Assembly (NCBI GenBank): GCA_019352195.1
Contig: JACAFG010000005.1
Location: forward strand, 156,287-220,286
Direction of reading: 5' to 3'
Length of the DNA stretch: 64,000 bases
From: Candidatus Saccharimonadota bacterium
Lineage (GTDB): Bacteria > Patescibacteriota > Saccharimonadia > UBA4664
A model generated the notes under the pieces. That model saw only the letters and a program-made list of their open reading frames with translations, had not been told where the DNA came from and did not search any database. Of the stretch, positions 25,721-42,019 are shown in pieces. Position 1 is the stretch's first letter; every line of letters begins with the position of its first letter. A program made the position numbers and the translations under genes.

Positions 25721-25806
25721 GCCGCTGTGGTGGAATGGTAGACACAAGGGACTCAAAATCCCTCGAGGGCAACTTCATGTCAGTTCGACTCTGACCAGCG
25801 GTACCA
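25721..25806 (+). tRNA. tRNA-Leu (anticodon CAA), long variable arm
   Basis: GCCGCTGTGGTGGAATGGTAGACAC..anticodon loop CTCAAAA..T-arm GTCAGTTCGACTCTGAC..CAGCGGT-A-CCA. Confidence 0.85.
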
Positions 25807-25823
25807 GCAATGATCAAACTAAA

Positions 25824-25853
25824 ATAACGCCTTTGTTAAGGCGTTATTTTAGT
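25824..25853 (+). terminator. hairpin + T-run after tRNA-Leu (ATAACGCCtttgttaaGGCGTTATTTT)
   Basis: 8-bp stem; same hairpin recurs at ~29050 and ~34640. Confidence 0.65.
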
Positions 25854-26020
25854 TCTGTAAAAGGTGGGTGCCACTGCGTATATCGGAAAGTCATTATTCG
25901 AATCAAGTGTAGTAATTTTACAAGCTAAGCTTGCACTTGCATTAAGTGGATTAAATTCGGTAAAAGTTATATAATATTCAACGTCCATTCGTTGTTTGAC
26001 ATCGGTGTAGCAGAAATGAG

Positions 26021-28150
26021 TTGATTTATGTGTATCAGCCATACCCATACCAGGTCCCGGTTTTACATGCCATCGACTTAGCCCGTAAGTCGGGCAAAAG
26101 AAGTGCTCTCGTTGTCTTGGCCTCTGGTCTTGGCAAAACGGTAGTAGCAGGATTTGATATTCGTCGCTTCATGAGCAGCCACCCTGGGGCAAAGGTCTTG
26201 TACCTGTGCCACCAGAACTAAATACTGCGGCAGGCTCGTAGGGAACTAGAGGAGAATATCCTGCCTAACAAGTACAATCATGGGTTCATGATTGGCGACG
26301 ATCGGGCGATCCATGGCGTCGATTTGTTGTATGCGTCATTCCAAACGATGCATCGCCATCGTCGACGTTTTCGGTCCGATGAGTTTGACTACGTTGTAGT
26401 CGACGAAAGTCACCACGGTCCAGCGCCCACGTATCTTCCGACACTGGAATACTTCACCCCGAAGTTTCTGTTGGCTATCACCGCTACTCCAGACCGTATG
26501 GATCAGCAAGATATTGGTGAAATTTTTGGCGATCCGATCTTCAGGATCGAGCTAGAAGACGCTTGGGCACGCGGTTTGCTCGCGCCAGTTGATTACCGTG
26601 TAATGACCGACGAATGGCAAAATTTGGAGGTACTCGACACGCCAATTGGGAAACTGAGCATAAAACAGCTCAATAAGACCATTTTTGCGACCAAGCGTGA
26701 TGAAGAGATTGTCCGCATCATTGAGGGCAGGATCATGCACCTCTTTGAGCCGCGGGTAATGATTTTCTGCCCGCGTATTAGTCATGCCGAGCACATTGCT
26801 GACCTCATGGAAGGCGCGACCGCTATTCACTCCATGCTTACGAGCACCGAGCAAGAAGATCGGCTAAACGGTTTTCGTGATGGTAAGTACCGTGTCGTCA
26901 GCACCGTCGACATGTTTAACGAGGGCATTAATGTTCCAGAAGCGAATGTCATCGTGTTCCTACGCTCAACGGCTTCGCGTACGATTTTTTTCCAGCAACT
27001 GGGCCGTGGGCTCCGCAAGAGCAAAACAAAGAAACATGTCCTGGTTCTTGATTTTGTAGCGAACTGTGACCGTTTGCTTATACTCGATGAACTCAGGGGC
27101 GGCGTTAACGAGCGGCTCACCAAGCTGCGCTCAAGGACGCCCGGAGGCGATACACCAATCGTGATCGACTCAGGGGATTTTATATTCGACGAGGCCGTAC
27201 GTGACGTACTTAAGATACTCGCATCGATCAGGGGTAGGTACTCGAACGAGGAGCTGATAGAGATTTTCCGAGCCAAGGCGCTAGAGCTTGGGCGCAATCC
27301 GACCGGTGATGATGTCGACGCCGATCCGGCGTTGCCAAGTAGGGCGCTGTACTATAAGCGATTCGGTAATTGGAGCAAACTGCTGCGACTCGTAGATCTA
27401 GACGCGGCCTTCTTCAGGTCTGATGATCGTCTGATTCATGAACTCAAGAAACTAGCGGACCAACTGGAAAGAGCGCCCTCGACCAAGGACGTTAAGGATA
27501 CACATTGGATGGCGGCACCAAAGACTTACTACCAGCGATTTGGCAAGAGTTGGTCTGAGGTTCTCGCTAAAATCGGTCTTACTCCTGCTAGAAAATTCCT
27601 CTCCGACAAGGAGCTGCTCGATAAGTTGCGAGCCAAGTATCAAAGTTGGACTGAGCAATTTCTTACCATGGCGAATATAGATGCCGATTCGGAGATGGCT
27701 CATTCTTCGACATACAGGGAGAGGTTTGGCTCGCTAGATAGCGCGTTATTGCGAGCGGGTGTCACGGAAGATATTCAAGTTCAACACCAAAAAGCGGTGC
27801 TGACAAAGCGTCTGAAAGAGCTTGGAGACCGACTCGGCCGTACACCTGGGCGTCGAGACGTCGATAAAGCCTCAGATATGGCGGACAGCAGCACTTATCG
27901 GAAGCTGTTCGGAAGTTGGAACAGTGCACTAGGTACCGCTGGATATCCGCAAATTCGGGTGCGTCGGACCCCAGAGATGATGCTTGCGGACCTCCGAATG
28001 CTCGTCGATAAATACGGTAAGTTGTCGCAACCTATCATCAATTCCGAATCAGGAGTTGCTTCATCATCCACGTATGCATTGAAGTTCGGCTCAATAGCGA
28101 ACGCTGCTAGGCTTGCGGGAGTTGAACCGAATAACTCTCGTATCAAATAA
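26021..28150 (+). pseudogene. DEAD/DEAH (SF2, res-subunit-like) helicase fused to 5 tandem ~50-aa HEAR-like repeats; interrupted by in-frame TAA at 26219-26221
   Basis: ORFs 26021-26221 and 26288-28150 are in the same frame; Q-motif PYPYQ, Walker A ASGLGKT, then stop, then DESHH (motif II), helicase C-domain; C-terminal repeats ..LGRxP..S.TY..RFGSW..AL..AG. Confidence 0.7.
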
Positions 28151-28304
28151 TTTCCGGTCATGTGTTAGCATGACGTAATTCTTGATGACCACATCGAGAA
28201 AGCCGGTACGATAACCCGGTGCAGTCACTAAATGTTATTTAGTCTGATGAGTCTGAAAAGACGAAACTGCAAATCACCCGCTACTTTTTGGCGAGTACTA
28301 TTTT

Positions 28305-28353
28305 AGTTCGAACGTCGTTGACGGTGGTGTACCAAAGAACTTATGCTCATACG
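28305..28353 (+). repeat. island repeat copy C (AGTTCGAACGTCGTTGACGGTGGTGTACCAAAGAACTTATGCTCATA)
   Basis: member of GTTCGAAC..GGTGGTGTACCA..ACTTATGCT family. Confidence 0.8.
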
Positions 28354-28369
28354 AGAGTCTCTCCACAAA

Positions 28370-28630
28370 CTAGTAGTGGTAACGACAGGCAAATATTCGA
28401 ATTTCTTCATTTATCACTGTGTAAACGAGACGATGCTCATCTGTTATTCTTCTAGACCAAGATCCAGCCAAGTCTTCGCGTAAAGGCTCAGGCTTGCCTA
28501 GGCCTTCAAATGGGCTCCGCTGGCAGTCTCTAACTAGTTGATTTATCTTCTTGAGAATTTTTTTGTACTGAGATTGCCAATAGACGTAATCATCCCAACC
28601 GTCTGGAGTAAAACTAATTTGTCTGCTCAT
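28370..28630 (-). CDS. yoeB: YoeB/Txe-family toxin
   Basis: WDDYVYWQ..PFEGLGKPEPL..WSRRITDEHRLVY..ACRYHY near-canonical YoeB. Confidence 0.9.
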   Translation of the reverse strand: MSRQISFTPDGWDDYVYWQSQYKKILKKINQLVRDCQRSPFEGLGKPEPLREDLAGSWSRRITDEHRLVYTVINEEIRIFACRYHY

Positions 28631-28881
28631 TATTCAGAAATAGCGTGAGATGATACATTCCCGCTCGCTGCGTCGGCAAACCCGCGACGCAAACGCTTGG
28701 CATTATTTTTATTTCCAAGCAAATAGTCAGTTTCTACTTTTGAGTTGTATTGCTCGAGCGGCATAGCGACGATCGTGCTGCCATCAGTACGAGTAATTAG
28801 TAAAACATCCTGATCGTCAATCACCTGATCAAAGTACTTCTTTGAATCTTTGCGAAAATTAGAAATGGTAGTTACTTTCAT
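28630..28881 (-). CDS. yefM: YefM/Phd-family antitoxin
   Basis: Phd/YefM N-terminal fold (TTISNFRKDSKKYFDQV..LLITR); 1-nt overlap with yoeB. Confidence 0.85.
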   Translation of the reverse strand: MKVTTISNFRKDSKKYFDQVIDDQDVLLITRTDGSTIVAMPLEQYNSKVETDYLLGNKNNAKRLRRGFADAASGNVSSHAISE

Positions 28882-29004
28882 GGTTGTCTCCTTGTATGTT
28901 AAATTGTACGCTAAAACGTACGTTAATACAATGAATTTAGCACGGTTCGTAAATTATGGGCTCTCAGTATAAAAGCCTACCCATTCTTTTCGAACCAATA
29001 GTTT

Positions 29005-29083
29005 GGTTCGAACGTCTAGCACGGCGGTGTACAGCGCAGATCGAACTAAAATAACGACTTTGTGTGAAGGCGTTATTTTAGTT
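29005..29083 (+). repeat. island repeat copy D plus copy of tRNA-Leu 3' flank hairpin
   Basis: GGTTCGAACGTCTAGCACGGCGGTGTACAGC..GATCGAACTAAAATAACGACTTTGTGTGAAGGCGTTATTTTAGTT. Confidence 0.8.
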
Positions 29084-29302
29084 TTTGGAATAGTGGGTAC
29101 CAACCAATACCTTGTAGTTCCAAAACGGAAAGAGCCCCCGGCTGCGGAGGATTTCCTATGCTGGAGGCTATAAGTCGAAGGCCAGTTGTGGGTCTTGATT
29201 GCCACGGCTAATCTCCGTGACATATTTGGGTAATTCCTTGCTCGTCGGATAGTAATGCTGACGGCAGGCACAGCGTGATTCACCCAACCACGACTCATAG
29301 CA

Positions 29303-29848
29303 TTAGTGAGTTTTGCTTAACGGTTTGCCGCATTGAAGACAGAGCACACGACCTTCGTAGCGAAATATGGTTGGTAGATCACCGGCGGCCGCTTTTTGTA
29401 GCAGAACATCGTCAACATCAACACCAAAGTAAGTAGCGATTTTTTCTGGCTGAAAGAAAACAAGATTTTGCAGCCAGGTTTTTGGTAAGAATAGCTCTCT
29501 GACGATTGAATTGACGAACGCTTCTAGGAGCCAGTACTGCCTAGAGGAATATACATCCTTTATTCCAAAACTCTTAATGAGGTACCAGTGAACGATCTCA
29601 TGGACAACCGAGAAGCGAAACTCGTTTTGACTAGAGTCGCTTTTTACCTTCACCACATAACCTTGGCCGCTATGAAATAGCGCTGCAGGTCCAGCTAAAT
29701 CTGACGAAATAGTAAGTCCGAGGCCTAACAATTCACACATGTGGATCGGGTCGAGAATAAATCCTTGGTCTCGGCGCAATACTTTCGAACGAGAAAGAGC
29801 GTCCAAATGTGTCGCCGAGCCATAAGCTAACACCTCTTCTCTTGCCAC
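29303..29848 (-). CDS. ImmA/IrrE-family zinc metallopeptidase (DUF955) with C-terminal zinc ribbon
   Basis: HEIVHWYL (HExxH) motif; C-terminal CLQCGKP..; no partner HTH gene seen. Confidence 0.65.
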   Translation of the reverse strand: MAREEVLAYGSATHLDALSRSKVLRRDQGFILDPIHMCELLGLGLTISSDLAGPAALFHSGQGYVVKVKSDSSQNEFRFSVVHEIVHWYLIKSFGIKDVYSSRQYWLLEAFVNSIVRELFLPKTWLQNLVFFQPEKIATYFGVDVDDVLLQKAAAGDLPTIFRYEGRVLCLQCGKPLSKTH

Positions 29849-29980
29849 TTTAGCCTCCTGTACCGTTTGGTTTTTAAGGGACGTGGTTACGTAATCAGTT
29901 TATTGAGCGCGGACGAATCTATCTAGTCAACAATTCTTGCCTTAATTTGCTTTTAGTAAAATCTCGTTGCGCCTAAGTAC

Positions 29981-30030
29981 AGTTCGAACATCCCCCACGG
30001 TGGTGTACCATTTGGATCGAACTCGACATA
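29981..30030 (+). repeat. island repeat copy E
   Basis: AGTTCGAACATCCCCCACGGTGGTGTACCATTTGGATCGAACTCGAC. Confidence 0.8.
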
Positions 30031-30421
30031 GCGAAGCTAAAGATAGTAGGCTGATTTGATGATGGTTAAGTAAACTGCGATAGAGCGCTTTTGCTTAATC
30101 AAGTTTTCATTTGCATTAGTATTGGATCGATCGAGCAGATTCATGCAATCGCCCCTAGCTATTCGCAGAAAGTATCACCATACTGATGAGCACGCTAGTA
30201 TAAGGTTCTACTCAATGAAGCGCCGGGATCACAAGTACCGCAACGAATCGGGTAAAATCACGGTATAATTCTTGGTTATGCCTACCATCATTCTGAACTT
30301 GCTGCTGACACTGCTTTTGAATTCCATACTTCATCATCGATTCTATAGCAATCTCAGGATTAGTTGCCCTATCAATGCACGTTAGGCATGGCGCATAGTA
30401 ACAACCTTATGAGGAGCTTTC

Positions 30422-30958
30422 ATGACCGAATTACCACCCGAGATAAATAGTTTTGTCGCTGATACTCGCGAAGACTTAATTGTAAATGCCATCGAAATAT
30501 TTGACACTATCAAGCAGTCACTGCTCGTGCTAGATAAAAATCTTACAGTCGTACTGGCTAATGCTTCGTTTTACCGAAACTTTCAATTTACCAAAAAGGA
30601 AACTGAAGGTACCCGTATTTATGATGTCGGCAACGGACAATGGCAAAGTGCTCGGCTCAAATCATTGCTCGAAAAAATTATTCCAGAACAAAAAGAAGTG
30701 AACGACTACGAGCTTGTACATACATTTGATCACGTTGGCGAGCGGGCAATGCTGCTGAATGCGCGAGAAATTATTCGTCAAGACAATCGCCAAGAAGTTA
30801 TTTTGCTGGCCATCGAGGATATAACAAATAAGAAGTTTATGGAGCAGCAGACAAAGGATGCCGAATCGCGCATCAACAAGATTCTCGAGAATTTGGTTGG
30901 GTCCTCCGAACGATACACGGGTGGGACAGGTTCCCCATTGGCCAAGCCGCTGAAATGA
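30422..30958 (+). CDS. stand-alone PAS-domain protein
   Basis: PAS fold pattern (..LVLDKNLTVVLANASFYRNF..); no output domain; translationally coupled to next gene. Confidence 0.6.
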   Translation: MTELPPEINSFVADTREDLIVNAIEIFDTIKQSLLVLDKNLTVVLANASFYRNFQFTKKETEGTRIYDVGNGQWQSARLKSLLEKIIPEQKEVNDYELVHTFDHVGERAMLLNAREIIRQDNRQEVILLAIEDITNKKFMEQQTKDAESRINKILENLVGSSERYTGGTGSPLAKPLK

Positions 30959-31332
30959 CCGACCGACGTTCTTCAAACGCGGTTTATATGCGCGAAGATC
31001 TATTGTGGATCGAGGTGGTGGGCGATCAAAACGGTGAAACAATTCGCGCTATGGGAGAGCTTATTGACGCGCAGATTACTATCTTGCGTAGGGCTCATAA
31101 GCCCGTATTAGTACTTGATGACCTAACGCGTATCGGCAATGCCAATACCGATGCCCTGAAAGGTGTGGCCATTTTAGCTCGGATGCTCGACTATGATCTC
31201 GCCGCCATGCTCGACAAAAAATCGGCGCTGATGCGCGGAGGCACTAACCTCCTGCTCACATCCATTGGGAGAGCCGATGCGCGTTATTTTTCTGACCGAG
31301 ATAAAGCTATGAATTGTCTTCGCAACGGATAA
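30955..31332 (+). CDS. STAS-like (anti-sigma-antagonist fold?) small protein
   Basis: 4-nt overlap with PAS gene; weak STAS-like pattern (VLVLDDLTRIGNANTDALKGVAILARML). Confidence 0.35.
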   Translation: MTDRRSSNAVYMREDLLWIEVVGDQNGETIRAMGELIDAQITILRRAHKPVLVLDDLTRIGNANTDALKGVAILARMLDYDLAAMLDKKSALMRGGTNLLLTSIGRADARYFSDRDKAMNCLRNG

Positions 31333-31391
31333 TTTCAGTATTTTGCGCTAAACATAAGAGGCACTCGAGAGAGTGCCTCTTATGTTTAGAA

Positions 31392-31580
31392 ATTGGTCGG
31401 GGCGGGACTGGTCATGGAAGACGTCGCGGCGGTGTGGCTTACTAACTAACAAAGCAACGGGCTCAAACGACGGACTTAACTAAATCAGACTCTATTTGAA
31501 CCGGACATTCTTAACTCGATGTGCCACATCTAGGAGCTAATTTATATCCTCCTGTGTTCCGAAATTAATATATCAAATTA
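31392..31580 (+). repeat. ~190-bp repeat, copy 1 (GGTCGGGGCGGGACTGG...CTAGGAGCTAATTTAT..CCTCC...TATCAAAT)
   Basis: ~85% identical to 37666-37850; directly preceded by hairpin 31357-31380. Confidence 0.8.
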
Positions 31581-31647
31581 ATTTATTGTGAATCAAGTAT
31601 TTATATACAGTCAGGCGGTGGCTAATTTATACTCGATGTGGCTTGCG

Positions 31648-31695
31648 CATTTCGGGCGTCGCCCACGGTGGTGTACCAATGTTCTTATGCTTATA
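31648..31695 (+). repeat. island repeat copy F
   Basis: CATTTCGGGCGTCGCCCACGGTGGTGTACCAATGTTCTTATGCTTATA. Confidence 0.8.
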
Positions 31696-31820
31696 ACGGC
31701 CTATCAAGGGCGCTATTTGCGTATTAAGCTTCTATAATGAACAACAGTGGACATTTGAAGCGAGCTATTGAGCTAGTAGTCCAATACTGAGCGGACTCAC
31801 TATAAGCGCCGAATTAAAAA

Positions 31821-31849
31821 AGTGCCCTCATGGTTGAGGGTACTTTTTT
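31821..31849. terminator. bidirectional terminator hairpin
   Basis: AAAAAAGTGCCCTCatggttGAGGGTACTTTTTT. Confidence 0.7.
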
Positions 31850-31856
31850 ATTGTTT

Positions 31857-32039
31857 TTAGCTTGTTCTCGGATGACCATGAGCGGCGTATTCGTCGAGTA
31901 GCTCTTTCTGCTCGATGTTTGAGTGAGCAGCAGCCGTTTCGATAAGGCGCTTCTGATCCTTCGCCTTTAACTCGTAGAAATGATTGTCGGTCTTGGGGGG
32001 AGAGAAAAGTTTAGAAAGTTTGCGTAGAATGCGTGTCAT
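31857..32039 (-). CDS. small protein downstream of zeta-like kinase (possible cognate partner)
   Basis: 60-aa ORF overlapping zeta-like gene by 4 nt. Confidence 0.4.
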   Translation of the reverse strand: MTRILRKLSKLFSPPKTDNHFYELKAKDQKRLIETAAAHSNIEQKELLDEYAAHGHPRTS

Positions 32040-32737
32040 TTGAGCTTCTCCTCTAGCAGCTCCCTAGTATAGGGCGCTTTTAGATAATGATCAACGTTTG
32101 TAATATTTATTACGTATTTATATTGTAACGTATCAGCGTTCTTATTAATGAGGTATAAGTAAATTTTGTTTCCGAACTCTTCTTTGCAACGATTTACATT
32201 TTCTTTTGCCGAAAAGTATGCATTGATGAAGGTTTCTTTTGGAACCATCCGACCTTCGCGTAGCTCACGCGCTTTGGTTATGTCCCAAGCTACTAAGGGA
32301 TCTTGGTGCACATAAAGAATTACAGGTTGTCGGCCGTGTTTTATTGCACGCTCAATGTTTTTGTAAGCTAAGTCGTATCTAGCAAACGTACCGTCAAAGA
32401 GAAAACTAAGTTGCTTGTTTAGTGCATGGTCTAAAATCTTTTGAACCGCTAACGATGCTGCGCCTTGAACTTCATCAGAGTTATTCCCGGTGTAACCCGG
32501 TATAGTTGCTCGGATATCATCAGGATCTATTCGTAATATACCGCTTACGCCATGAACTTCTTTGTAGGCTTGTAAAAAGTTGCGAGACCACTCTGTTTTG
32601 CCTGCGCCTGGCGATCCGGCCATGAAAAACGTTTCTGGATGAGGGTTGGGAGTGAACTTTTGAGGATCAACAAATTGCTCGACTAAGCTGCGCTTGTTGG
32701 CTTTGACGAATTTTACGGCTTCTTCAGATAAACTCAT
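32036..32737 (-). CDS. zeta-toxin-family P-loop kinase
   Basis: Walker A GSPGAGKT, ..IDPDDIR..P.Y.., ..LFDGTFARYD collinear with PezT/zeta. Confidence 0.65.
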   Translation of the reverse strand: MSLSEEAVKFVKANKRSLVEQFVDPQKFTPNPHPETFFMAGSPGAGKTEWSRNFLQAYKEVHGVSGILRIDPDDIRATIPGYTGNNSDEVQGAASLAVQKILDHALNKQLSFLFDGTFARYDLAYKNIERAIKHGRQPVILYVHQDPLVAWDITKARELREGRMVPKETFINAYFSAKENVNRCKEEFGNKIYLYLINKNADTLQYKYVINITNVDHYLKAPYTRELLEEKLK

Positions 32738-32778
32738 GTTCTGATAATATCAGTTTTTACATGCGCCACTTGAATCCT

Positions 32779-32826
32779 AGTTCGAACGTCGCCCACGGTG
32801 GTGTACCATTAAACTTATGCTTCGAA
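32779..32826 (+). repeat. island repeat copy G (near-consensus)
   Basis: AGTTCGAACGTCGCCCACGGTGGTGTACCATTAAACTTATGCTTCGAA. Confidence 0.85.
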
Positions 32827-33412
32827 TGCTGTACTTAGTTGTCAGTGTTAAAACGCACTAATGAATTCTCCTCGTACTCGTCTCACGCTAATTATGTTTA
32901 TTCTAGTGGCAGTTGTACTTGGTCGGTTGGCTACTCAAATTGCCAACTACTCCATCTATCGAATACAACCTGGTGCCTCGTCCTGCCAAAGAATTTCTGG
33001 GCCTAGCCTATGCCCTATCCTTGAGTCGTCATCGAGAAATTACGGATAGCCGATAGTTACAAGTACTGTTCTAATCAAACCTAAAATTTCGGATGGGGCA
33101 TACCAATTTTCGGAGGAGGCCTTTGAACGCTCCCCGGCCTTACGGCCAGCTTTCTCTCCGTATATTAATGCCTTTGAAGACGACTGGATATTATGGAGCG
33201 TCTTTTTTCTCTTAGCCTTAATAGTTATGCGGTCTCATCAAAAAAAACCGTCGCTCGCTTTAATGTAGTCTTCTTATTTGGTGCATTGCACAATATTAGC
33301 AGCGTGCCGTAGCGGTGACCGTAATAGCTTATACAAACCCTCAAGTGGCGAAATATAGAGCTTATTTTCACAGTCTCCCATGGAAGTCTATTTCTTTTGA
33401 TATTATTAGGTC

Positions 33413-33808
33413 ATGAATACTCTCGTAAAGCGGCTTCGGGACGGGCAGGATCTCATGTTAGAGATAACTAAACTCGTCGGGGAAAATCACGTACAGGCAG
33501 GTATCATCCTGTCGGCTGTAGGCAGTCTAAAAGAATCAAATATACGCGTACCTATTATCGACGGCGCCGTGAAATACATTAATCCGACTAATTTAGAGAT
33601 CGACAACTTGCATGGAACGGTGTCGGTAAATGGCTGCCACCTTCATATTTCTGTGTCTGATATCGACGGTAAAGTTATGGGCGGCCATTTAAAAACCGGT
33701 TGCATTGTTCGAACAACATGCGAGCTGGTGATTGGAGTATTGGACGATCATTCATTCCGACGAGAGCCCGATTCCGATACTGGTTACGATGAGCTGGCGG
33801 TCACTTGA
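33413..33808 (+). CDS. DUF296 / PPC-domain protein
   Basis: ..GIILSAVGSLKESNIR..GHLHISVSD.. pattern typical of PPC/DUF296. Confidence 0.55.
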   Translation: MNTLVKRLRDGQDLMLEITKLVGENHVQAGIILSAVGSLKESNIRVPIIDGAVKYINPTNLEIDNLHGTVSVNGCHLHISVSDIDGKVMGGHLKTGCIVRTTCELVIGVLDDHSFRREPDSDTGYDELAVT

Positions 33809-34002
33809 TTCGCTGCTGACGAGGTTACATCGCATTTCGAACGTCTTTTACGATGGTTTTCCAGCAGCCATCGAACCAAAACAGCGCATTTCTAGTGTCT
33901 TTCTCTTGTGCATTCAAAAATAAACTTGTTTAGATTGAGGGAGTTAGTTGTCGGAGCTTTAACCTTGACCGCGACTAACTGTGTAGCTATAATGTAATTA
34001 CT

Positions 34003-34239
34003 ATGAAGGCATCAATCGTCACCATCGGCAATTCAAAGGGTATACGCATTCCGAAGCCCCTGCTCGAGGAAAGTGGCTTAAGCGGTGACGTTGAATTAAA
34101 AGCTGTTAAGGGTGAAATCAAGATTGTTGCAGCAACACGCGATCCGAAGATATCGGAAACCATGCTTCTTTCCGAAAAAGTGCTTGCACGAGACTGGCTA
34201 CGCCCCGAAGAGGATGAGGCATGGTCAAGTTTACAGTAG
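34003..34239 (+). CDS. mazE: MazE/AbrB-type antitoxin
   Basis: IGNSKGIRIPKPLLEESGL; paralogue of 7786-8067 product. Confidence 0.75.
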   Translation: MKASIVTIGNSKGIRIPKPLLEESGLSGDVELKAVKGEIKIVAATRDPKISETMLLSEKVLARDWLRPEEDEAWSSLQ

Positions 34240-34553
34240 GGCAAGTCGTCACAAGTGCCTTTCCATTTTCTGATCTCACGACACAGAAGTTGAGGCCAGC
34301 ACTAGTTGTTGCGATCGGGGACTTCGAAGACATAATTTTATGCCAAATCACCTCAAAAACGTATTCGAGCTCTAATCCTATCAAGTTAACAGCTGCAGAT
34401 TTTGTCGAGGGTAGCCTGCCGGTGGATAGTTTTATACGTCCTGACAAATTATTTACGGCCGATCAATCAATCGTACATTAAGCATATGGCAGAGTCAGTG
34501 ATGCAAAGCTGCAGCACGTTCTGGCCGATATTCGCCAGTTATTTACGACCTAG
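34221..34553 (+). pseudogene. mazF: MazF/PemK toxin with in-frame TAA at 34479-34481
   Basis: N-terminal 86 aa (..RPALVVAIG..ITSKT..) then TAA; the same frame continues AYGRVSDAKLQHVLADIRQLFTT*, the expected MazF C-terminus. Confidence 0.65.
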
Positions 34554-34586
34554 ACGTAGTGGTCGAGTATCTTGAAGTTGAATTGC

Positions 34587-34662
34587 AGTTCGAACGTCGC
34601 CCACCGTGGTGTACCAGCAATAATCAAACTATGATAACGCCTTTATTAAGGCGTTATCTTTG
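34587..34662 (+). repeat. island repeat copy H plus second copy of tRNA-Leu 3' flank
   Basis: AGTTCGAACGTCGCCCACCGTGGTGTACCA + GCAATAATCAAACTATGATAACGCCTTTATTAAGGCGTTAT (compare 25807-25850). Confidence 0.85.
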
Positions 34663-34749
34663 TATATATCGCTTTGGGTCCCAAGTATTATTCAAAACTT
34701 TTTTTAACGGAAAGAGCCCCCAGGCGCGGAGGATTTACGGGCTTGAGGG

Positions 34750-35355
34750 CTAAGCGGTTAGTTTGATGGGATCAGCAACTTTGTGGCGCTGATATCCAGG
34801 ATGCCAGAGCCGGACCACAGCCTGAACGACTGCGAGCTGGCTGCCGGGAATGAACATGAGCGATGCCCTCGTGAGCAATCGCACCTTGCGTTCCTGCGAG
34901 GCGTAATTTGCCTCTTCGTCGCAGGACAATGGGAAGGCGTATTCGCTCGTGGTTGTGGTGATGTTGAACCCGCGCCCTAGTATTTTGCGGCCCAAGAACA
35001 GAATACGTGGTTCAGCGTGGCGGATCGTCACAAAAATTACATCTGCGACCTTGATACCGTTACGTGCCATTACGTGCTTGGCGCAAGTCATATTGCTGAT
35101 GTTATCTCGGGATTGATCCTCGAAGAGGATGTGGTCTGCTGGTACTCCCAAGTCAATCATGATGGCGCGCATTTCGGCGGCTTCGGTGAATTCGTTCTGA
35201 TTAGTGTCAAGGACACTCCAGCGTCCGCACGCCGTAACATAATCGACTTTGCCCGACAGCCACAACGCGGCAGCTTTGCGGGCAATCGATTTCGTGCCTT
35301 CAGCGCCCGGTCCACGACCAAAGGCAATGGCAATAGTTGTCAATCGAAACACCAT
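34750..35355 (-). CDS. DUF218 / YdcF-ElyC-SanA family protein
   Basis: YdcF-like Rossmann-like core; family assignment by overall pattern. Confidence 0.5.
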   Translation of the reverse strand: MVFRLTTIAIAFGRGPGAEGTKSIARKAAALWLSGKVDYVTACGRWSVLDTNQNEFTEAAEMRAIMIDLGVPADHILFEDQSRDNISNMTCAKHVMARNGIKVADVIFVTIRHAEPRILFLGRKILGRGFNITTTTSEYAFPLSCDEEANYASQERKVRLLTRASLMFIPGSQLAVVQAVVRLWHPGYQRHKVADPIKLTA

Positions 35356-35439
35356 CCTCAGTTAGGGCGGATAGAGTAGTATATAGTAACATTAATTTAA
35401 CTATAGTGCAACATTATTGCGTTGTAATAATCGTATCGA

Positions 35440-35471
35440 AGTTCGAACGTCGCTTACGGTGGTGTACCATT
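35440..35471 (+). repeat. island repeat copy I
   Basis: AGTTCGAACGTCGCTTACGGTGGTGTACCATTG. Confidence 0.8.
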
Positions 35472-35549
35472 GTGTACAAAGTAAATAGTTACGACGTCTT
35501 GACGTCATAACGTTATTAGATCATACTCAAAGTATATAAGGAGACCCAT

Positions 35550-35780
35550 ATGGCAACCCTAACCGAGCGCACCACGGTATATCTTAATCCGTATGTAAAA
35601 AAGTATCTGCAGCATGAGGCCGTTGAACAGAATAAATCGATATCCGAATTGATCAACGAGCAATTGGCTGAGTTGCTGGAAGACGCTGAGGATTCGGCAG
35701 CCATTAATTCTCGTAAGACCGAATCTCTTACGTCGTGGGACAAGGTTAAGGCCGATTTAGTGCGAGACGGATTGCTTTAG
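35550..35780 (+). CDS. relB: RHH (RelB/CopG-like) antitoxin
   Basis: RHH N-terminus (TTVYLNPYVKKYLQHEAVEQNKSISELI). Confidence 0.65.
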   Translation: MATLTERTTVYLNPYVKKYLQHEAVEQNKSISELINEQLAELLEDAEDSAAINSRKTESLTSWDKVKADLVRDGLL

Positions 35781-35785
35781 CCCCG

Positions 35786-36037
35786 ATGTACGTAATTGTC
35801 TTGCGAACCAGCGCCACGAAAGAGTTACGCAAGCTGCCTAGTCCTATCCGGCAGCAAATCATTATCCTGATTGATTCGCTGGCAAGCGATCCAAGACCTC
35901 ATGGCGTGAAGAAAATGGCGGGGGTTGAAGCTTGGCGAATACGTTTTGGTGACTACCGAGTAATTTTCTCGATTCAAGATACCCGGTTATTGATTGAGAT
36001 TATCAAAATTGGTAACCGACGTGATGTCTACCGGTAA
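35786..36037 (+). CDS. relE: RelE/ParE-family toxin
   Basis: ..GVKKMAGVEAWRIRFGDYRVIFSI..LIEIIKIGNRRDVY RelE/StbE signature. Confidence 0.8.
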   Translation: MYVIVLRTSATKELRKLPSPIRQQIIILIDSLASDPRPHGVKKMAGVEAWRIRFGDYRVIFSIQDTRLLIEIIKIGNRRDVYR

Positions 36038-36063
36038 CATTAACTCATCGTTATTTTGATCGC

Positions 36064-36110
36064 AGTTCGAACGTGGGTGACGGTGGTGTACCAATGAACT
36101 TATGTTTGTA
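36064..36110 (+). repeat. island repeat copy J
   Basis: AGTTCGAACGTGGGTGACGGTGGTGTACCAATGAACTTATGTTTGTA. Confidence 0.8.
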
Positions 36111-36160
36111 TTTACAACTAAGAGCCTCGGACGCGCCGAGATCTCTCAGTCGTCCAAGGC

Positions 36161-36697
36161 TCATTTCAGGGGCTTTCGCCAAACGCTACCGTCATATTCC
36201 CCTTCGGCATCATTGAAGTATCTTTCGGCAATGCCAACTGGTCTACCATACAGCCTCCGCCAGAATGGCCAGCCACTCCACCGAAAGCGGGGCCCGCTGA
36301 CGAGAACTATCTCGGTGTGCCCATCAGCACGGGCTTTGTTTTCCATGTGGGCGACAAGTGCACGGCCAATGCCTGTTCGGCGTGTGAGAACGTATGCGTC
36401 AGTGAGCTCGATTGGGTTTTCGCTGCGAGCAAAGCCGCGGATAATTTTGTCGGGTGGTTTGAGCGTCATCACGCCCAATAGCACCTGGCTTCCAGGTTGT
36501 TTTGCAACGACGCAATATCCTTGTGAGGGTTGGTTGCGATAGCTCAGTATAGCCGCCAATACCTCGGTAATCTCGTCCATGGCAACTTCGTCAGTGGGCG
36601 GATTGCGAATGGCGCTGATAAGTACCGGCAGCAAACTCTCCCTGGGGTTGTGAATCGTGAATAGGTCGCAAATTTCGATGTCACTGGTCATGTTCAT
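36161..36697 (-). CDS. GNAT-family N-acetyltransferase
   Basis: acetyl-CoA site RRTGIGRALVAHMENKA. Confidence 0.6.
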   Translation of the reverse strand: MNMTSDIEICDLFTIHNPRESLLPVLISAIRNPPTDEVAMDEITEVLAAILSYRNQPSQGYCVVAKQPGSQVLLGVMTLKPPDKIIRGFARSENPIELTDAYVLTRRTGIGRALVAHMENKARADGHTEIVLVSGPRFRWSGWPFWRRLYGRPVGIAERYFNDAEGEYDGSVWRKPLK

Positions 36698-36962
36698 CTC
36701 CGCCGGAGAAGGAATGGGTTGCTAGATATAACAGCTTTGGCTGTCGGCATTACCATAGCTTCTTTCCCGTAATACATCAAGTCTTGGTAAGTACGTAAGG
36801 ATGCCGCTTGCGGGGTTCTTACTTTGCTCCACCACTTTGCAAATTGGTTCGACTGTCCTGGATGGTGGTAAACCAGTACTAATGAACTTAAATATCGTCG
36901 TTGTTAGCGTATTTAGGGTGTGATATAGCCAGGTAGCTGGTCGGAATTGTTGGTAGGGTGAG

Positions 36963-37529
36963 CTAGTATCCGAACGATTTAGGCTGCGTCTTTTCAGCCG
37001 ACAATACCATCTCGTATTCGGGCCGTAGTTTACCATTGGAGAGTCTTGTCTCGGATTCAGGCAATTGGCTCGTGATCTTAAATCCGAGCCGTTTATAAAA
37101 CGATACTGCATTCGTGTTATAGGTTACTACGTTGAGTACGATATCGTCATCTCGTCCGAGCCACTTGAGCGCTTCAGCGGTTAAGGCGTAACCCGCGCCC
37201 TGGCCTTGATACTCTGGCAACACATAGAGCGCGCGAAGCTTGTGTTTGCCATCTTGCTTACGCGCTTCACAGTGGCCTACAACTTTATACCCTATAGTCG
37301 CTACCAGCCGAATAGTGGTTGAGTCGTGCTTCTCATTCGCGATTCTGTCAGTGAACTCCTGGATTGCGTCAGGTTGGTCCCACCAGTTCGTTGCCGCAAC
37401 AATATCCGCGTAGGTAATGCCATATTCAACGTTTGGATAGGTTGCTCGCCAGGTAAGCGTCTGCACCTCTCGAATGCCTGCAGCGTCGCTTGGAACCGCG
37501 CGGCGGATCTTGATATCGTAGCTTGTCAT
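36963..37529 (-). CDS. GNAT-family N-acetyltransferase
   Basis: YVLPEYQGQGAGYAL motif A; start at ATG 37527-37529. Confidence 0.7.
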   Translation of the reverse strand: MTSYDIKIRRAVPSDAAGIREVQTLTWRATYPNVEYGITYADIVAATNWWDQPDAIQEFTDRIANEKHDSTTIRLVATIGYKVVGHCEARKQDGKHKLRALYVLPEYQGQGAGYALTAEALKWLGRDDDIVLNVVTYNTNAVSFYKRLGFKITSQLPESETRLSNGKLRPEYEMVLSAEKTQPKSFGY

Positions 37530-37665
37530 GGGTTCAGTATATCTGAGCCACGACGCTAAGTAATAGCTTGGCTTTTTCTGTGTCATTCGAACATGCTCCC
37601 ATGACTCATTGACTATGACGTAAAACGCAAAAGCAGAGACGCTCGTTAGAGCCTCTCTGCTTTTG

Positions 37666-37850
37666 ATTGGTCGGGGCCGGACTTGGACTGGAAGACGTCG
37701 CGGCGGTGTGGCCGACTAACTAACAACGAAGCGGACAAAACTTACTACTACTTAGTAACGCGGACTGAACGGGACATTCTTAACTTGATGGGCCACATCT
37801 AGGAGCTAATTTATGTCCTCCTGTGTCTTCCGTAGTTAATATATCAAATC
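37666..37850 (+). repeat. ~190-bp repeat, copy 2
   Basis: preceded by hairpin AAAAGCAGAGAc..TCTCTGCTTTTG at 37628-37664. Confidence 0.8.
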
Positions 37851-37997
37851 TCGGAAACGAAGATCAAGAGTTTTTTTGGGTTAAATTATTTTACGCGGCC
37901 GGCTTGCCAGTTAGAATTTTCAATTCGCGAAGCTGCGGCGCCAAATACTGACCGGGTTTTTTGACACCCCTCCATTTGCATCGGGGTTTGGTATACT

Positions 37998-38612
37998 TTG
38001 CCCATGATTAAGGCAATTACTTTCGATTTGGACGGCGTGTACTTCCCTAGCGGCAAGGCTAATTTCATAAAAGCTGTCGTTTCGCTTGGTGTAGCAGAAG
38101 ACGAGGTGAAGCGGGTTTTTCTTAAGAGTTTTGAAATGAATGAGCGTTACAAAATAGGCGTCATGACTGATGATGAGTTTTGGACTTGGGCGGCGGAGCA
38201 ATGGCAGTTAGACATGGCTCCAAAGCAGCTGATCGAACTATTAGGCGACAGCTATGAGGTAGATCCGAAGGTCGTAGAAGTCGTGAGAATGGCGCGTCGC
38301 AGTGGTTATAAGACACTGGTTTGCTCCAATAATTTTCCCGCGCGCGTCAATGAGTTGCAGCGTAAGTTTGCGTTTCTCGATAACTTTGATGCGGCGGTAT
38401 TCTCTTATGAAATTGGTGCCGTGAAGCCGTCTGAGGCCATCTTCCAGGAGCTGGTCAAGCGATCGGGTGTTATGGCCGAAGAAATTGCATTTGCTGATGA
38501 TGATGCGGAAAAAATATCCGGAGCGGTGGCTATCGGGATGACCGCTTTCGTATACGATGGTTTTGAACCGTTTATTGATCACCTCAATTCACTAGGAGTG
38601 AAATTAGCGTGA
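37998..38612 (+). CDS. HAD-superfamily hydrolase
   Basis: motif I ITFDLDGV; capped HAD length. Confidence 0.7.
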   Translation: MPMIKAITFDLDGVYFPSGKANFIKAVVSLGVAEDEVKRVFLKSFEMNERYKIGVMTDDEFWTWAAEQWQLDMAPKQLIELLGDSYEVDPKVVEVVRMARRSGYKTLVCSNNFPARVNELQRKFAFLDNFDAAVFSYEIGAVKPSEAIFQELVKRSGVMAEEIAFADDDAEKISGAVAIGMTAFVYDGFEPFIDHLNSLGVKLA

Positions 38613-39091
38613 TCATCAAAAGTCATGCTCCCGAAAACTACGATTGCCCTATTTGCTTGGGCCTACTAGGCAGTGCTAGTCAAAAGACGTTGATAAAAGC
38701 ATCAGATTTTGTCTATCGAGATGAGCTGGTGAGCGCGTTTATAAACACGTTTTTCATTGGCAAGAATGGCGGGCATGTAATCGTCGTGCCAAACGAGCAC
38801 TTCGAAAATATCTACACATTACCCGTCGCTCATGGCCATCGTATTTTTGATGTGGCCCAAATGATTGCCTTAGCAATGAAAGCAGCCTATGACTGCGACG
38901 GCATTACCACGCGCAACAATAACGAGCCTGCTGGTGACCAGCACGCATTTCATTATCATTTTCACGTTTTTCCGAGATATGTGGACGACGACTATAACTC
39001 AGTGTCACCGGCCGAAAAACGACTAACAGAGCCTGCTGAACGGGCCGGATATGCCGCTAAAATTAAAGCCGCGCTTGCAGCAGGAGAATAG
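38609..39091 (+). CDS. HIT-family (histidine triad) protein
   Basis: HYHFHVFPR triad; 4-nt overlap with HAD gene. Confidence 0.65.
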   Translation: MIIKSHAPENYDCPICLGLLGSASQKTLIKASDFVYRDELVSAFINTFFIGKNGGHVIVVPNEHFENIYTLPVAHGHRIFDVAQMIALAMKAAYDCDGITTRNNNEPAGDQHAFHYHFHVFPRYVDDDYNSVSPAEKRLTEPAERAGYAAKIKAALAAGE

Positions 39092-39137
39092 CTAGCTGCC
39101 CCGGTGGGCTCTCGCTGCTTTGTCCCCTTCACGAACA

Positions 39138-39175
39138 CATTTCGAACTTCGCCCCCCCCGGTGACGTATCAACAG
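39138..39175 (+). repeat. degenerate island repeat copy K
   Basis: CATTTCGAACTTCGCCCCCCCCGGTGACGTATCAACA; resembles copy F 5' half. Confidence 0.5.
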
Positions 39176-39454
39176 GAATGTAACTAACGTAACGCCCTCA
39201 TGAAGGCTCTGGGTTAGGTGGCGCAATCGTGGTTACGCATTGTGCTTTGATTCGGGAAACTCCTCAGGCCATACGTATTGCTGAGGAGTTATGGGTTGTC
39301 ATATCTTAGTCAGCGAAGATGGCATCAAACGCGTGATCAGACAAGCCGAAGTGTTTTTGGTAGTAGTAGCGAGTCGAAGCCGCCATGTCGGCCCTACGCT
39401 GCTTCTAATAGCAGTCACTAAATTCATCGTCACGGTAGCTGTTATTATTAACGT

Positions 39455-40027
39455 ATGACTACGCCAAACGCCATCATTGTACATGGTATGACGAGCCGGG
39501 ATGAATATTACGATGATGCTATGCCATCAATGAGTAATAATCACTGGGTACCGTGGTTGCAGAAGCAGCTACTGATTCGGGGAATAGCGACGGCTACTCC
39601 TGAAATGCCGTTAGCATATGCGCCAGATTACGAGGTGTGGCGGCGCGAGTTTGAACGCTATGAGATTGGACCCGAGACGATTTTGGTGGGTCACAGTTGT
39701 GGGGGTGGTTTTTTAGTGCCCTGGCTGAGCGAACATCAGGACAAGCGCGTCAAACAAGTTTTGCTGGTGGCACCCTGGCTTGATCCGTTTCGAGAAGATA
39801 CTACCGACTTCTTTGAGTTTGATATCGATCCCGGCCTCGCAACGCGTTCACCGACATGGTTGTTTCATTCAGATGACGATAGCGTGGGGGTCCAGACTAG
39901 CGTCACTACGATCCGCGTGGCCCTGAAGGACATTCGCGACGTGGGATTTCATGGGTATGGTCATTTTACCTTCAACGACCTTGGGACAACGGCGTTTCCG
40001 GAATTGTTATCCACCTTACGTAGTTAG
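39455..40027 (+). CDS. alpha/beta serine hydrolase, YdeN/RBBP9 family
   Basis: nucleophile elbow VGHSCGG; family size 190 aa. Confidence 0.6.
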   Translation: MTTPNAIIVHGMTSRDEYYDDAMPSMSNNHWVPWLQKQLLIRGIATATPEMPLAYAPDYEVWRREFERYEIGPETILVGHSCGGGFLVPWLSEHQDKRVKQVLLVAPWLDPFREDTTDFFEFDIDPGLATRSPTWLFHSDDDSVGVQTSVTTIRVALKDIRDVGFHGYGHFTFNDLGTTAFPELLSTLRS

Positions 40028-40144
40028 AAAACTGGGTAGGCTACCGGGTGCTTGAACGTGAGTCATCACGATAATTCCCCAATGGCACGGCGTATTTGGT
40101 AATAGCTAGATTTTTGACCGCGGGATTTTTTCATCTGGTAACGG

Positions 40145-41371
40145 TTACTTAGCGACGGGTTGGTTAAGGGTTAAGTAAAAGAAGTCTTTGTTATATCCGT
40201 GCAGATAAGCATAGCCACCATTTGCAAGCGTGTTTAATATGCTCTGATAGGAGTAGCTGCCATTACCGAGCGGCTGAAACGTGACGTACCGAACCCAGAA
40301 AGCGTTTATATCCAGTTGAATTGCTTCGGTAGCGCCCCCGGCTTTAAGGGCGCTTGCTAGGGTTGCTGCCGTGAGCGACGGGCCAACGGCGTAAATAAGA
40401 TTACCGTTAGGGGTTAATCCGACACCCGAGCGCCAGGTATAAATCGAGTTGGTCGTAGTTCTGCCCCAGACAGCATAACCTCCTGAGATAGCGTCAGACG
40501 TAACCGTGCCATTATCTAAGATCAGCGGTCCATTTTGTCGTATGGCCTCGATTGGCTTGGTTGATGATGCTGGCGTCTGGTATCTGTTAATCATCAGGCT
40601 GCCATCTTTGTAAATGGTCAGGGTGCCCAGGCCAGTTTGAAGCGGAACATAGGTCGTTGGTCCAACTACCATGCCGTAGTGGCCGTCTTTATATTGAAAA
40701 CCGCCGTTAAAGCCCGCGACGAGCTCATTGCTGGCAATATCTGAGGCCGGAATAAGCCCAGGTCCGGGATGGCCAAGAATTGCACCCGGGTGTTCGGTAC
40801 CGGCCACAGAATGCAGATGCAGCTGATGCGCGTTCATTTGCACAAGCGCAACGATGGCGTAGCTTCGTGCCGAGTCTGGCCTGACAAATGTCTTCGCCAT
40901 GAGAGACTGCCCTTTAAACTGTGGCAGTTCAACCAGACTCCAATTTCCTTCGCCGGGTAATTTGGCGAAATTCGGCTGAAAGTAATTCAAGGGCGCAAGA
41001 TTGAGGGCTTGTAGATTGGCGGTGGCGTCGACAGTTGGGCTTAAGGCTGCTGGATTTGGGAAAGTTGCTGGTTGAGATGGTCCCGTGCTGAAGATGTTGC
41101 TATTTGGTTTAGCGATAGTACCATACGCGAGCTGCTTGAGGTGGTCACTGAGCGAAAGCATCGATGCCTCGAGGGCAATCGTAGCCCGATTACCAATGGC
41201 GGGCCGAAGATAATTGTCGGCAAAGTTAGCTACCAATGATGGCTGAAACTCTATGGTGGCAAGCCCAATGAGTCCAACAGCTACCACAGCAACCATGCCG
41301 GTAAGAAGCTTGCGTAGAGTACGCTTCTTCCTGGGTCCATCTAACGTATATTTGGGTTTTGGTGAGAACAA
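40145..41371 (-). CDS. phosphodiester glycosidase-family (DUF2233/NAGPA-like) secreted protein
   Basis: N-terminal TM anchor; AGFNGGFQ and GVGLTPNGNLIYAVG regions. Confidence 0.5.
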   Translation of the reverse strand: MFSPKPKYTLDGPRKKRTLRKLLTGMVAVVAVGLIGLATIEFQPSLVANFADNYLRPAIGNRATIALEASMLSLSDHLKQLAYGTIAKPNSNIFSTGPSQPATFPNPAALSPTVDATANLQALNLAPLNYFQPNFAKLPGEGNWSLVELPQFKGQSLMAKTFVRPDSARSYAIVALVQMNAHQLHLHSVAGTEHPGAILGHPGPGLIPASDIASNELVAGFNGGFQYKDGHYGMVVGPTTYVPLQTGLGTLTIYKDGSLMINRYQTPASSTKPIEAIRQNGPLILDNGTVTSDAISGGYAVWGRTTTNSIYTWRSGVGLTPNGNLIYAVGPSLTAATLASALKAGGATEAIQLDINAFWVRYVTFQPLGNGSYSYQSILNTLANGGYAYLHGYNKDFFYLTLNQPVAK

Positions 41372-41623
41372 ACTAGCTGGATTCCGTTTCCTAGAACGTA
41401 CGCTCTATGTAATAAAATTGATAATGGCCGGGCTACGTCTATGATACCAGAGTAAGCGAACGTTGCTCGCTTTGGAAGTCGCTGACTGTCGCTCCATTGA
41501 CGGTGCTTTCACGGCTCTCTGGGTTTGCCACGGGAGCCCACGCTGCTCAAATTGTCAGTTGAGCCAGCCGCCTTCTCGGGCTTAACTCCTTGCCCAGGCT
41601 TGTCTCCGAGACGTAGACGAGCG

Positions 41624-42010: not shown

Positions 42011-42019
42011 CTTGCGCTG

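Follow-up and report, generated by a model that had tools for sequence, protein, structure and literature searches.

A helicase-HEAR gene interrupted by an in-frame stop, with a candidate hammerhead ribozyme in its 3' untranslated region, at the tRNA-Leu border of a repeat-bounded gene array in a Saccharimonadota genome

The window examined here is a 64,000-nucleotide (nt) stretch of contig JACAFG010000005.1 from a Candidatus Saccharimonadota genome assembly, and our subject is a forward-strand gene at positions 26021 to 28150 that lies downstream of a tRNA-Leu gene and is followed by a candidate hammerhead ribozyme and an array of short repeats. Translation of this frame gives 710 codons with a single internal stop, a TAA at 26219 to 26221. 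A first-pass annotation, made by inspection of the sequence, had described a helicase with five tandem homing-endonuclease-associated repeat (HEAR)-like units next to the tRNA-Leu, broken by one in-frame TAA, and translation, Pfam searches, and ARAGORN bear this out. It had also joined 26021 to 26221 and 26288 to 28150 into one product, and the list of open reading frames (ORFs) and the translation do place both in a common frame, which reads across the stop as ..VLYLCHQN-stop-ILRQARRELEE... The motif positions likewise agree that the TAA falls between Walker A (ASGLGKT), encoded 5' of it, and motif II (DESHH), encoded 3' of it. The N-terminal fragment comprises 63 codons counted from a GTG at 26030 or 66 counted from a TTG at 26021; the GTG is the likely start and the TTG the less likely one, because the predicted N terminus MYQPYPYQ aligns with MYQPRPYQ of the closest homologs. 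The remainder of the gene, in an unchanged frame, encodes DESHH (motif II), TATPDR (motif III), QQLGRGLR (motif VI), a family signature (LDFVANCDR), and the five HEARs. Motifs I, II, III, and VI of a superfamily 2 (SF2) DExH helicase are all present, and the TAA breaks the coding sequence between motif I and the other motor parts.

An alignment of 29 homologs was used to evaluate the site of the stop. At this column they carry D (17 sequences), E (5), H (3), or P, N, A, and Y (1 each), and none of the 29 ends there, which answers the earlier question of whether relatives naturally terminate at this position. The stop had been placed in a conserved HRxELxxQA segment, which the alignment does not support; the family segment around it is CHQN[D/E/H]ILxQA. 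It had also been placed one substitution from GAA, AAA, or CAA, but the distance from the ancestral codon is probably two, because the codon in the three closest relatives is GAT or GAC; a fourth relative (locus L004) has CCG. Elsewhere in the gene, the broken copy deviates at 0 of 50 family-invariant columns, at 4 of 94 columns conserved at 90% or more, and at 13 of 163 conserved at 80% or more, and all three values lie within the span of the intact homologs. With the rest of the gene undecayed, the nonsense event appears to be recent.

The TAA is present in other assemblies as well. NCBI contig JABBYD010000014.1 is 100% identical to the window in both BLAST segments (~21.8 kb in total), and Logan contig SRR11551193_3740, which terminates within the tRNA-Leu at 25737, is identical to the window across 12,414 nt, the TAA being included in each case. 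The exact 620-amino-acid (aa) ORF (P0001) also occurs in public databases, in the Candidatus Saccharibacteria metagenome-assembled genome GCA_017884045.1. If the TAA were a sequencing or consensus artifact, or a minority allele, the gene of the organism would be intact; this would fit the lack of further decay, and both assemblies probably derive from one read set. The consensus of a metagenome-assembled genome can, moreover, fix minority variants. Against this, two different assemblers give an identical sequence across 12.4 kb, substitution errors are rare in an Illumina consensus, two changes would be needed (the closest relatives having GAY), and the start region, with its GTG codon and degraded Shine-Dalgarno sequence, looks weakened too, so that we regard an artifact or minority allele as quite unlikely. 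As a separate observation on these assemblies, NCBI contig L001 has, at its positions 1684 to 1770, ~87 extra bases including 10 N (a scaffold gap with its flanks) relative to window positions 18058/18059; the NCBI-contig segments flanking this gap are otherwise 100% identical to the window.

The first-pass annotation had proposed either a fresh pseudogene or a need for stop-codon readthrough, and of these the pseudogene stands, there being no other decay. Readthrough is unlikely because, of the stops in genuine use in the window, TAA is the most frequent, ending 15 of its 36 long ORFs, and also ends this very gene. Decoding of the stop, whether by programmed readthrough, a suppressor tRNA, or an altered code, would restore a full-length helicase, and the position of the TAA is indeed a variable and tolerant one in the homologs. 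Apart from the pattern of stop usage, on which an altered genetic code or readthrough was rejected, the TAA-A context is a strong terminator, the window has two tRNAs only, neither of them a suppressor, and no homolog has a stop at this site; we regard decoding as highly improbable. For the nonsense pseudogene, sequence inspection reveals no evident Shine-Dalgarno sequence before ATG 26288, and because the 620-codon ORF lacks both motif I and an evident ribosome-binding site, it is not expected to yield an active ATPase. NCBI names this Walker-A-less product (P0001; 26288 to 28150) an intact "DEAD/DEAH box helicase family protein" and not a pseudogene.

Upstream of the gene, we recognized a putative promoter and 5' untranslated region (UTR) with the pattern TATAAT...CGTYC..TTCG..TTTGACA, which is common to the window, L003, and L145. 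The Shine-Dalgarno sequence is weakened in the window (GAGTTGA) relative to L003 (GAGGTGG) and L145 (TAGGTGG). A scan for consensus promoters did not list the one at 25970. The shared promoter and 5' UTR pattern is found at about 7050 to 7113 in L003, about 665 to 728 in L145, and about 4940 to 5000 in L146, where TTCGTAC also occurs twice in a row as a perfect direct repeat. A gene for a LexA-like S24 repressor adjoins the L145 copy and may hint at an operator and at regulation by damage.

Downstream of the gene and on the same strand, a predicted type III hammerhead ribozyme begins 69 nt past the helicase stop codon. Its parts comprise stem III (GCAG/CUGC), the triplet GUC, a 7-bp stem I, the CUGAUGA box, stem II, and GAAA, i.e., a type III hammerhead core with stems I to III and stem III open, and cleavage is predicted after GUC, between 28226 and 28227. 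A minimum-free-energy (MFE) fold of the 3' UTR yields the hammerhead three-way junction. The Rfam family RF00008 matches it over the full model with 47.4 bits (E = 9e-8; scan of 25 to 45 kb) against a gathering score of 48.5, and the corresponding elements downstream of two relatives, in L003 and L146, fall below this threshold as well (46.3 and 44.9 bits; E from 1e-6 to 9e-8 among the three); a scan in gathering mode leaves the window element unlisted. We built a covariance model (CM; R1) from three of the five ribozyme lineages, and at E < 1e-4 in 573 kb of family loci it matches in 5 lineages, always 29 to 226 nt past a helicase-HEAR gene and on the strand of that gene. Counting both strands, a permissive regular expression matched 4 times in 2.05 Mb, each time at the helicase-downstream position. 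Over the 5 lineages, 97.9% of the pair cells hold standard pairs, and 13 of the 20 pairs are changed on both sides (stems I and III). The last hairpin of the 3' UTR, GCCGG-UACGAUAAC-CCGGU (28202 to 28220), stops 6 nt short of the ribozyme cleavage site; the form GCCGG-N9-CCGGU is conserved in L003 (an identical 25-mer) and in L146 (a variant), such that the hairpin is near-identical in three loci whose proteins are only ~50% identical.

Bacterial hammerheads have been described as flanking single genes near integrases and prophages, with an unclear function (Perreault et al. 2011, PMC3088659). The element in the window resembles the bacterial type III hammerheads of that study in its canonical core, its three stems, and its position flanking a single gene in accessory DNA. 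It differs in its specific link to the 3' UTRs of a single family of chromosomal genes in the candidate phyla radiation (CPR) and in having a hairpin 5' of the cleavage site, and, unlike the prophage-linked hammerheads, it has no phage genes around it. A literature search on hammerheads in the CPR or in helicase-HEAR 3' UTRs found no report of such an association; the hammerhead in a helicase-HEAR 3' UTR and its cassette-array setting are new observations.

The tRNA-Leu borders a region that is lower in G+C (a fraction of 0.42 to 0.48 in the array versus 0.51 to 0.58 in the flanks), in agreement with the earlier suggestion that the gene sits at the entry point of an island, i.e., at the edge of an accessory region by a tRNA. 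Within this region, we found nine co-oriented copies of a ~30-nt repeat (D1; consensus, GTTCGAACGTCGCCCACGGTGGTGTACCA) that resembles the stretch from the T loop to the CCA end of a tRNA. The first copy lies 32 nt past the end of the ribozyme model match (28274); all copies fall within 28.3 to 43.7 kb, and none would be expected by chance. They bound cassettes of one or two genes, which encode YoeB/YefM, an M78-like protein, a PAS protein with a small ORF, a zeta toxin with a small ORF, PCC with small ORFs, DUF218, and RHH/ParE, as well as a longer block with two GNAT proteins, HAD, HIT, and others. The toxin-antitoxin modules of the window are YoeB (E = 2e-39)/YefM, the zeta toxin with its small upstream ORF, RHH/ParE, and a lone RHH protein. 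The 3' flank of the tRNA-Leu (25801 to 25873, comprising a hairpin and a GGGTNCCA end) recurs at 29032 to 29102 and 34611 to 34683, each time right after a D1 copy, and these two copies look like older tRNA-proximal junctions that were pushed downstream. Two candidate identities were rejected. D1 is not a tRNA or tRNA-like RNA, as neither ARAGORN nor Rfam reports one, the copies have no common cloverleaf or minihelix, and they exceed a canonical T-arm/acceptor end by 5 nt; and the 3' end of the tRNA-Leu is not a classic att site, its exact 24-nt end being unrepeated within 3 mismatches.

The array invites comparison with integron arrays and tRNA-linked islands, with which it shares co-oriented short repeats, cassettes of one or two genes rich in toxin-antitoxin and GNAT genes, a start at a tRNA, and a lower G+C content. 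It appears to depart from integrons in that D1 resembles a tRNA from the T loop to CCA more than attC, and in that the cassette genes of the window lie on both strands; D1 is co-oriented and has short palindromes, and no consistent hairpin was seen in it. No IntI was matched in the ORFs scanned across the 64 kb. Compared with tRNA islands, the tRNA-Leu border is accompanied by the nine tRNA-3'-like D1 copies, with the exact 24-nt tRNA end not duplicated and no integrase among the scanned ORFs. More generally, 40 ORFs of 83 to 614 aa, i.e., most of the large ORFs of the window, gave no Pfam match to an integrase, recombinase, or transposase, and none is listed in the precomputed annotation of L001.

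One alternative is that the helicase-HEAR gene and its 3' hammerhead form a small mobile cassette, or are carried by one, that inserts by tRNA genes, and that the ribozyme and the tRNA-like repeat belong to the machinery that moves or expresses it. A tRNA 3' end or tRNA-like repeats stand on either side of the unit in the window, L146, and L145, and L003 has a weak D1-like match. In L146, the 3' end of a tRNA-Arg (CTCTCCGGGGACGCCA) recurs at 13 of 16 positions right after the ribozyme; in L145, 33-nt D1-type repeats flank the helicase gene on both sides and a fourth copy comes 3.6 kb beyond, and these can be aligned with those of the window (GGTTCKAACKTC..CAC..G..CCA); and in L003 a repeat model (R2) gives a weak D1-like match 18 nt past the ribozyme. 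A same-strand tRNA lies 98 to 660 nt upstream in 7 of ~57 family loci (Leu, Arg, Met, and four Asn), the closest relatives occupy unrelated neighborhoods, and bacterial hammerheads cluster with integrases and prophages (PMC3088659). Set against these points, none of the ORFs scanned in or near the unit matched a recombinase, transposase, or reverse transcriptase, most family loci have neither a tRNA nor a ribozyme, the full-length fusion is absent from IMG/VR, INPHARED, and PLSDB, and short flanking repeats such as the 13/16 match could arise by chance in single cases. We find such a mobile unit rather doubtful. Tried as a general feature of the family, tRNA adjacency was rejected, a first tally having found it in only 5 of 55 loci. 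Where the tRNA is tRNA-Asn(GTT), it stands directly upstream of the helicase-HEAR gene and on the same strand in L005 (7667 to 7739), L112, L114, and L145 (1 to 72); the proteins of these four loci are ~30 to 55% identical to P0003, and that of L005 (P0010) is 41% identical to the window protein. The recurrence reflects either old synteny or repeated targeting. We also observed a motif, (A)CTTATGCTTAT, 4 nt past four of the D1 repeats of the window (28340, 31684, 32814, and 36099) and 4 nt past the CCA end of real tRNAs in L145 (78) and L007 (14076), where it precedes a serine-recombinase/relaxase element; the motif may be the end of an inserting element.

Turning to the protein itself, Pfam assigns residues 6 to 159 to ResIII (E = 1e-27) and 239 to 333 to Helicase_C (E = 1e-14). 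The repeats are recovered by PF18780 (HNH_repeat, "homing endonuclease associated repeat") in five tandem stretches above the gathering score, with 170.2 bits against a cutoff of 26 (E = 1e-50). AlphaFold models (pLDDT confidence of 84 and 90) predict one long helix of 15 residues and three short helices in each repeat. The HEAR region is basic, with an isoelectric point of 9.5 here and of 9.5 to 11 in relatives, and between 2 and 7 repeats were detected in each of 120 relatives scanned. No solved structure homologous to the repeats was recovered by sequence, and Foldseek against the PDB gave nothing significant (best E = 0.46); among phage proteins without a known function, they match phrog_22655 (E = 7e-37) and two BFVD models. 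The literature on PF18780/HEAR yielded one entry in a modeling table and no experimental function for the repeat. From their charge and domain associations, the HEARs are most likely modular nucleic-acid-binding units that position the motor. Homing endonucleases that bear HEARs have the PF18780 repeats in common with the window protein, which differs in having them fused to a helicase and in lacking HNH, LAGLIDADG, or any other nuclease family at a Pfam E of <=0.1.

Among solved structures, that of SauUSI (PDB code 7clg) is the closest to the motor: phmmer aligns it across residues 10 to 351 (E = 1e-49), and it is the top Foldseek match, followed by RadD and XPB. The best-named NCBIfam matches are EcoAI R (HsdR; 108 bits) and RadD (84 bits), against equivalog cutoffs of 550 to 720 bits. 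The window protein shares with RadD, XPB (Rad25), and HsdR the fold and motifs of an SF2 double-stranded DNA (dsDNA) translocase, but its accessory domains differ and no partner subunits are encoded near it. Similarly, its SF2 DExH motor is homologous to that of SauUSI (PADLOC mREase_IV) by phmmer, Foldseek, and PADLOC, whereas the N-terminal PLD nuclease and the C-terminal DUF3427/SRA-like domain of SauUSI are missing from it (no Pfam match to PLD nuclease or DUF3427 domains was found in the helicase-HEAR protein); the five HEARs occupy the place of the target-recognition domain, and the family is centered on the CPR. The protein thus has the motor of a SauUSI-type enzyme without its nuclease and recognition domains.

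Homology searches with the protein returned 3,011 significant clusters among 8,000 scored candidates, mostly from the CPR, and the named homologs come from Saccharibacteria, Parcubacteria, Colwellbacteria, and Omnitrophica; the best match along the full length shares only 53% identity with the window protein. Since a contig scan with the full alignment returned mostly motor-only relatives from other phyla, we used a family-specific subalignment for the metagenome scan, which with the family-specific motif LDFVANC[ED] gave 55 loci. No relative with LDFVANC was found in IMG/VR, and tblastn against INPHARED and PLSDB recovered the motor only, with no record at >=80% query coverage. A phage or plasmid origin was rejected on these grounds, the full-length fusion being absent from all three databases, and the D1 and ribozyme-hairpin motifs being likewise absent from IMG/VR.

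That the helicase-HEAR fusion might be an antiphage candidate had been raised in the first-pass annotation, and the support for this is weak. In seven homolog loci with called genes, the neighbors are unrelated between loci and mostly housekeeping or of unknown function, and no conserved partner gene is evident; the proposed check for a defense-island context thus turned up housekeeping genes, the homologs lying by prmC, dnaG/rpoD, and ndk. On the class of the repeats, the PF18780 identity stands (170 bits), whereas their value as an Abi or defense marker does not, as no PADLOC model matches them. A fuller version of this alternative would make the family an antiphage or antiplasmid helicase, derived from a SauUSI-like type IV enzyme, in a defense island, with the window copy lost as costly. 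The best PADLOC matches are to type IV methyl-directed restriction endonucleases (mREase_IV; E = 6e-49), no solved structure is closer than that of SauUSI, toxin-antitoxin cassettes adjoin the gene in this genome, and defense genes are often pseudogenized. These matches, however, cover the motor only (positions 218 to 568 of the 945 of the model), with every PADLOC match confined to the helicase core; nuclease and DUF3427 are lacking, and the homologs are solitary beside prmC/prfA, dnaG/rpoD, ndk, and surA-like genes. With such partial motor matches and unrelated neighbors in the 7 loci, the locus does not qualify as a PADLOC-DB v2 defense system, and we consider a defense role unlikely.

We judge it probable that the locus is a member of a large helicase-HEAR family of CPR chromosomes that recently became a nonsense pseudogene, bearing a ribozyme and set in a cassette array. 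Intact members would be SF2 DExH dsDNA translocases, with a motor closest to those of SauUSI, RadD, XPB, and type I HsdR, that carry a variable and basic array of four-helix HEARs. In the window copy, the TAA at codon 64 (counted from GTG 26030) would end translation just past Walker A, and the remaining 620-codon ORF would be predicted to give no active ATPase. Transcription would proceed from the apparent promoter of the gene itself into a 3' UTR with the conserved hairpin and then the type III hammerhead. Self-cutting at the hammerhead would leave an mRNA with a hairpin-protected 2',3'-cyclic-phosphate 3' end, and it would uncouple this mRNA from the downstream, usually convergent, genes. 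The helicase-ribozyme unit, with a tRNA 3' end on one side and a tRNA-3'-end-like repeat on the other, would be the first cassette of the array, and this first place in a repeat-bounded array suggests that it arrived by site-specific recombination.

Several points weigh against this interpretation. Both assemblies probably go back to one set of reads, so that the TAA may be a polymorphism of the population or a systematic error; NCBI annotates the 620-aa ORF as an intact protein, and an internal start may give an ATPase-dead, DNA-binding product. The ribozyme scores just under the Rfam gathering threshold, its cleavage is a prediction, and the covariation alignment was fitted to the model. It is found in only ~5 of ~57 family loci and not family-wide, so that it appears to be a lineage-specific addition. 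The DNA-binding role of the HEARs is argued from charge and domain associations. Finally, cassette integration is something that we infer, because the scanned ORFs include no integrase and the 3' end of the tRNA-Leu is unrepeated.

By itself, the broken gene is ordinary and chiefly shows how public annotation passes a Walker-A-less 620-aa fragment as an intact helicase. The helicase-HEAR family is of wider interest as a large, CPR-centered, and uncharacterized one that joins a restriction-type DNA motor to repeats otherwise known from homing endonucleases. The 3' UTR hammerhead with its compensatory changes offers a concrete case for a role of bacterial hammerheads, in 3'-end formation and mRNA insulation, and the array of tRNA-end-like repeats hints at how the tiny genomes of Saccharibacteria gather accessory genes. 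More tentatively, and on balance doubtfully, Saccharibacteria might carry a previously undescribed cassette system, in which units of one or two genes accumulate 3' of tRNA genes, separated by ~30-nt spacers that mimic tRNA ends, with helicase-HEAR, equipped with its own promoter and with a hammerhead to cut its 3' end, as a recurrent and self-contained cassette. If so, the hammerhead, possibly together with the tRNA-like repeats, would serve as "punctuation" at the RNA level and free cassettes from the context of their insertion, and a recombinase encoded elsewhere would move them. The coordinates of the features are collected in Table 1.

Table 1. Features of the helicase-HEAR locus, of the adjoining array, and of related loci (positions are those of the window unless a locus is named)
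Feature	Position(s)	Strand	Basis or remark
tRNA-Leu(CAA)	25721..25806	+	ARAGORN; Rfam tRNA, 55 bits; left border of accessory region, 224 nt from gene
tRNA-Leu 3' flank, terminator-like hairpin AAAATAACGCCTTTGTTAAGGCGTTATTTT	25807..25873	+	Repeat families D2-D4, 80-89% identity
Putative own promoter and 5' UTR	25970..26029	+	-10 TATAAT at 25970-25975; putative, read from sequence
N-terminal fragment	26030..26221	+	Q-motif region and Walker A ASGLGKT; closes at TAA 26219-26221
Rest of gene, frame unchanged	26222..28150	+	Annotated 620-aa ORF from ATG 26288
Five HEAR (PF18780) repeats	27239..28123	+	Pfam, AlphaFold models, repeat alignment
Individual HEAR repeats	27239-27418, 27419-27601, 27602-27763, 27800-27967, 27968-28123	+	
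3' UTR hairpins	28157..28220	+	MFE fold; three hairpins ahead of ribozyme
Predicted type III hammerhead ribozyme	28219..28272	+	Rfam RF00008, own CM, covariation, MFE fold
First D1 repeat	28306..28334	+	GTTCGAAC..ACGGTGGTGTACCA; right border of helicase unit
Nine D1 copies	28306, 29006, 29982, 31650, 32780, 34588, 35441, 36065, 43713	+ (all)	Array 28306..43741
Toxin-antitoxin modules	28370-28881, 32036-32737, 35550-36037, 8972-9292		
L003 ribozyme (relative P0003)	L003 9532-9586		Rfam, 46.3 bits
L146 ribozyme (relative P0004)	L146 6996-7049		Rfam, 44.9 bits
L089 ribozyme (relative P0095)	L089 5916-5985		CM, 34 bits; U15.1/A16.1 swap
L010 = L125 ribozyme (relative P0039)	L010 5198-5272		CM, 31 bits
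L145 D1-homologous repeats	L145 531, 566, 3577, 7226		
Neighbors in homolog loci			prfA/prmC and htrA; dnaG/rpoD; surA-like and ndk; lexA-like; divIC and insertion sequence (IS) element

Damaged members of the family were also seen elsewhere, L116 being frameshifted (frames 1 and 3) and L091 (about 1077 to 2402) lacking its 5' third. P0095 was considered as a second N-terminally truncated case and rejected, its apparent truncation being a start-site call at MASGLGKT with no stop at the same site. The C terminus in L116 has CPxC zinc-ribbon-like repeats in place of HEARs. P0007 (827 aa) has a precomputed match to LAGLIDADG_3 (PF14528) beside the helicase and HEARs, which may represent either an intein or a homing nuclease fused to the protein. 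Within the cassette region of the window, 31392 to 31578 and 37666 to 37849 match one another as three adjacent direct-repeat segments with 86 to 93% identity, ~6.27 kb apart. The HEAR region of L007 (9254 to 10168) is a tandem array at the DNA level, with five units of 183 nt that are 60 to 74% identical to the first, which suggests that repeat number shifts by unequal recombination.

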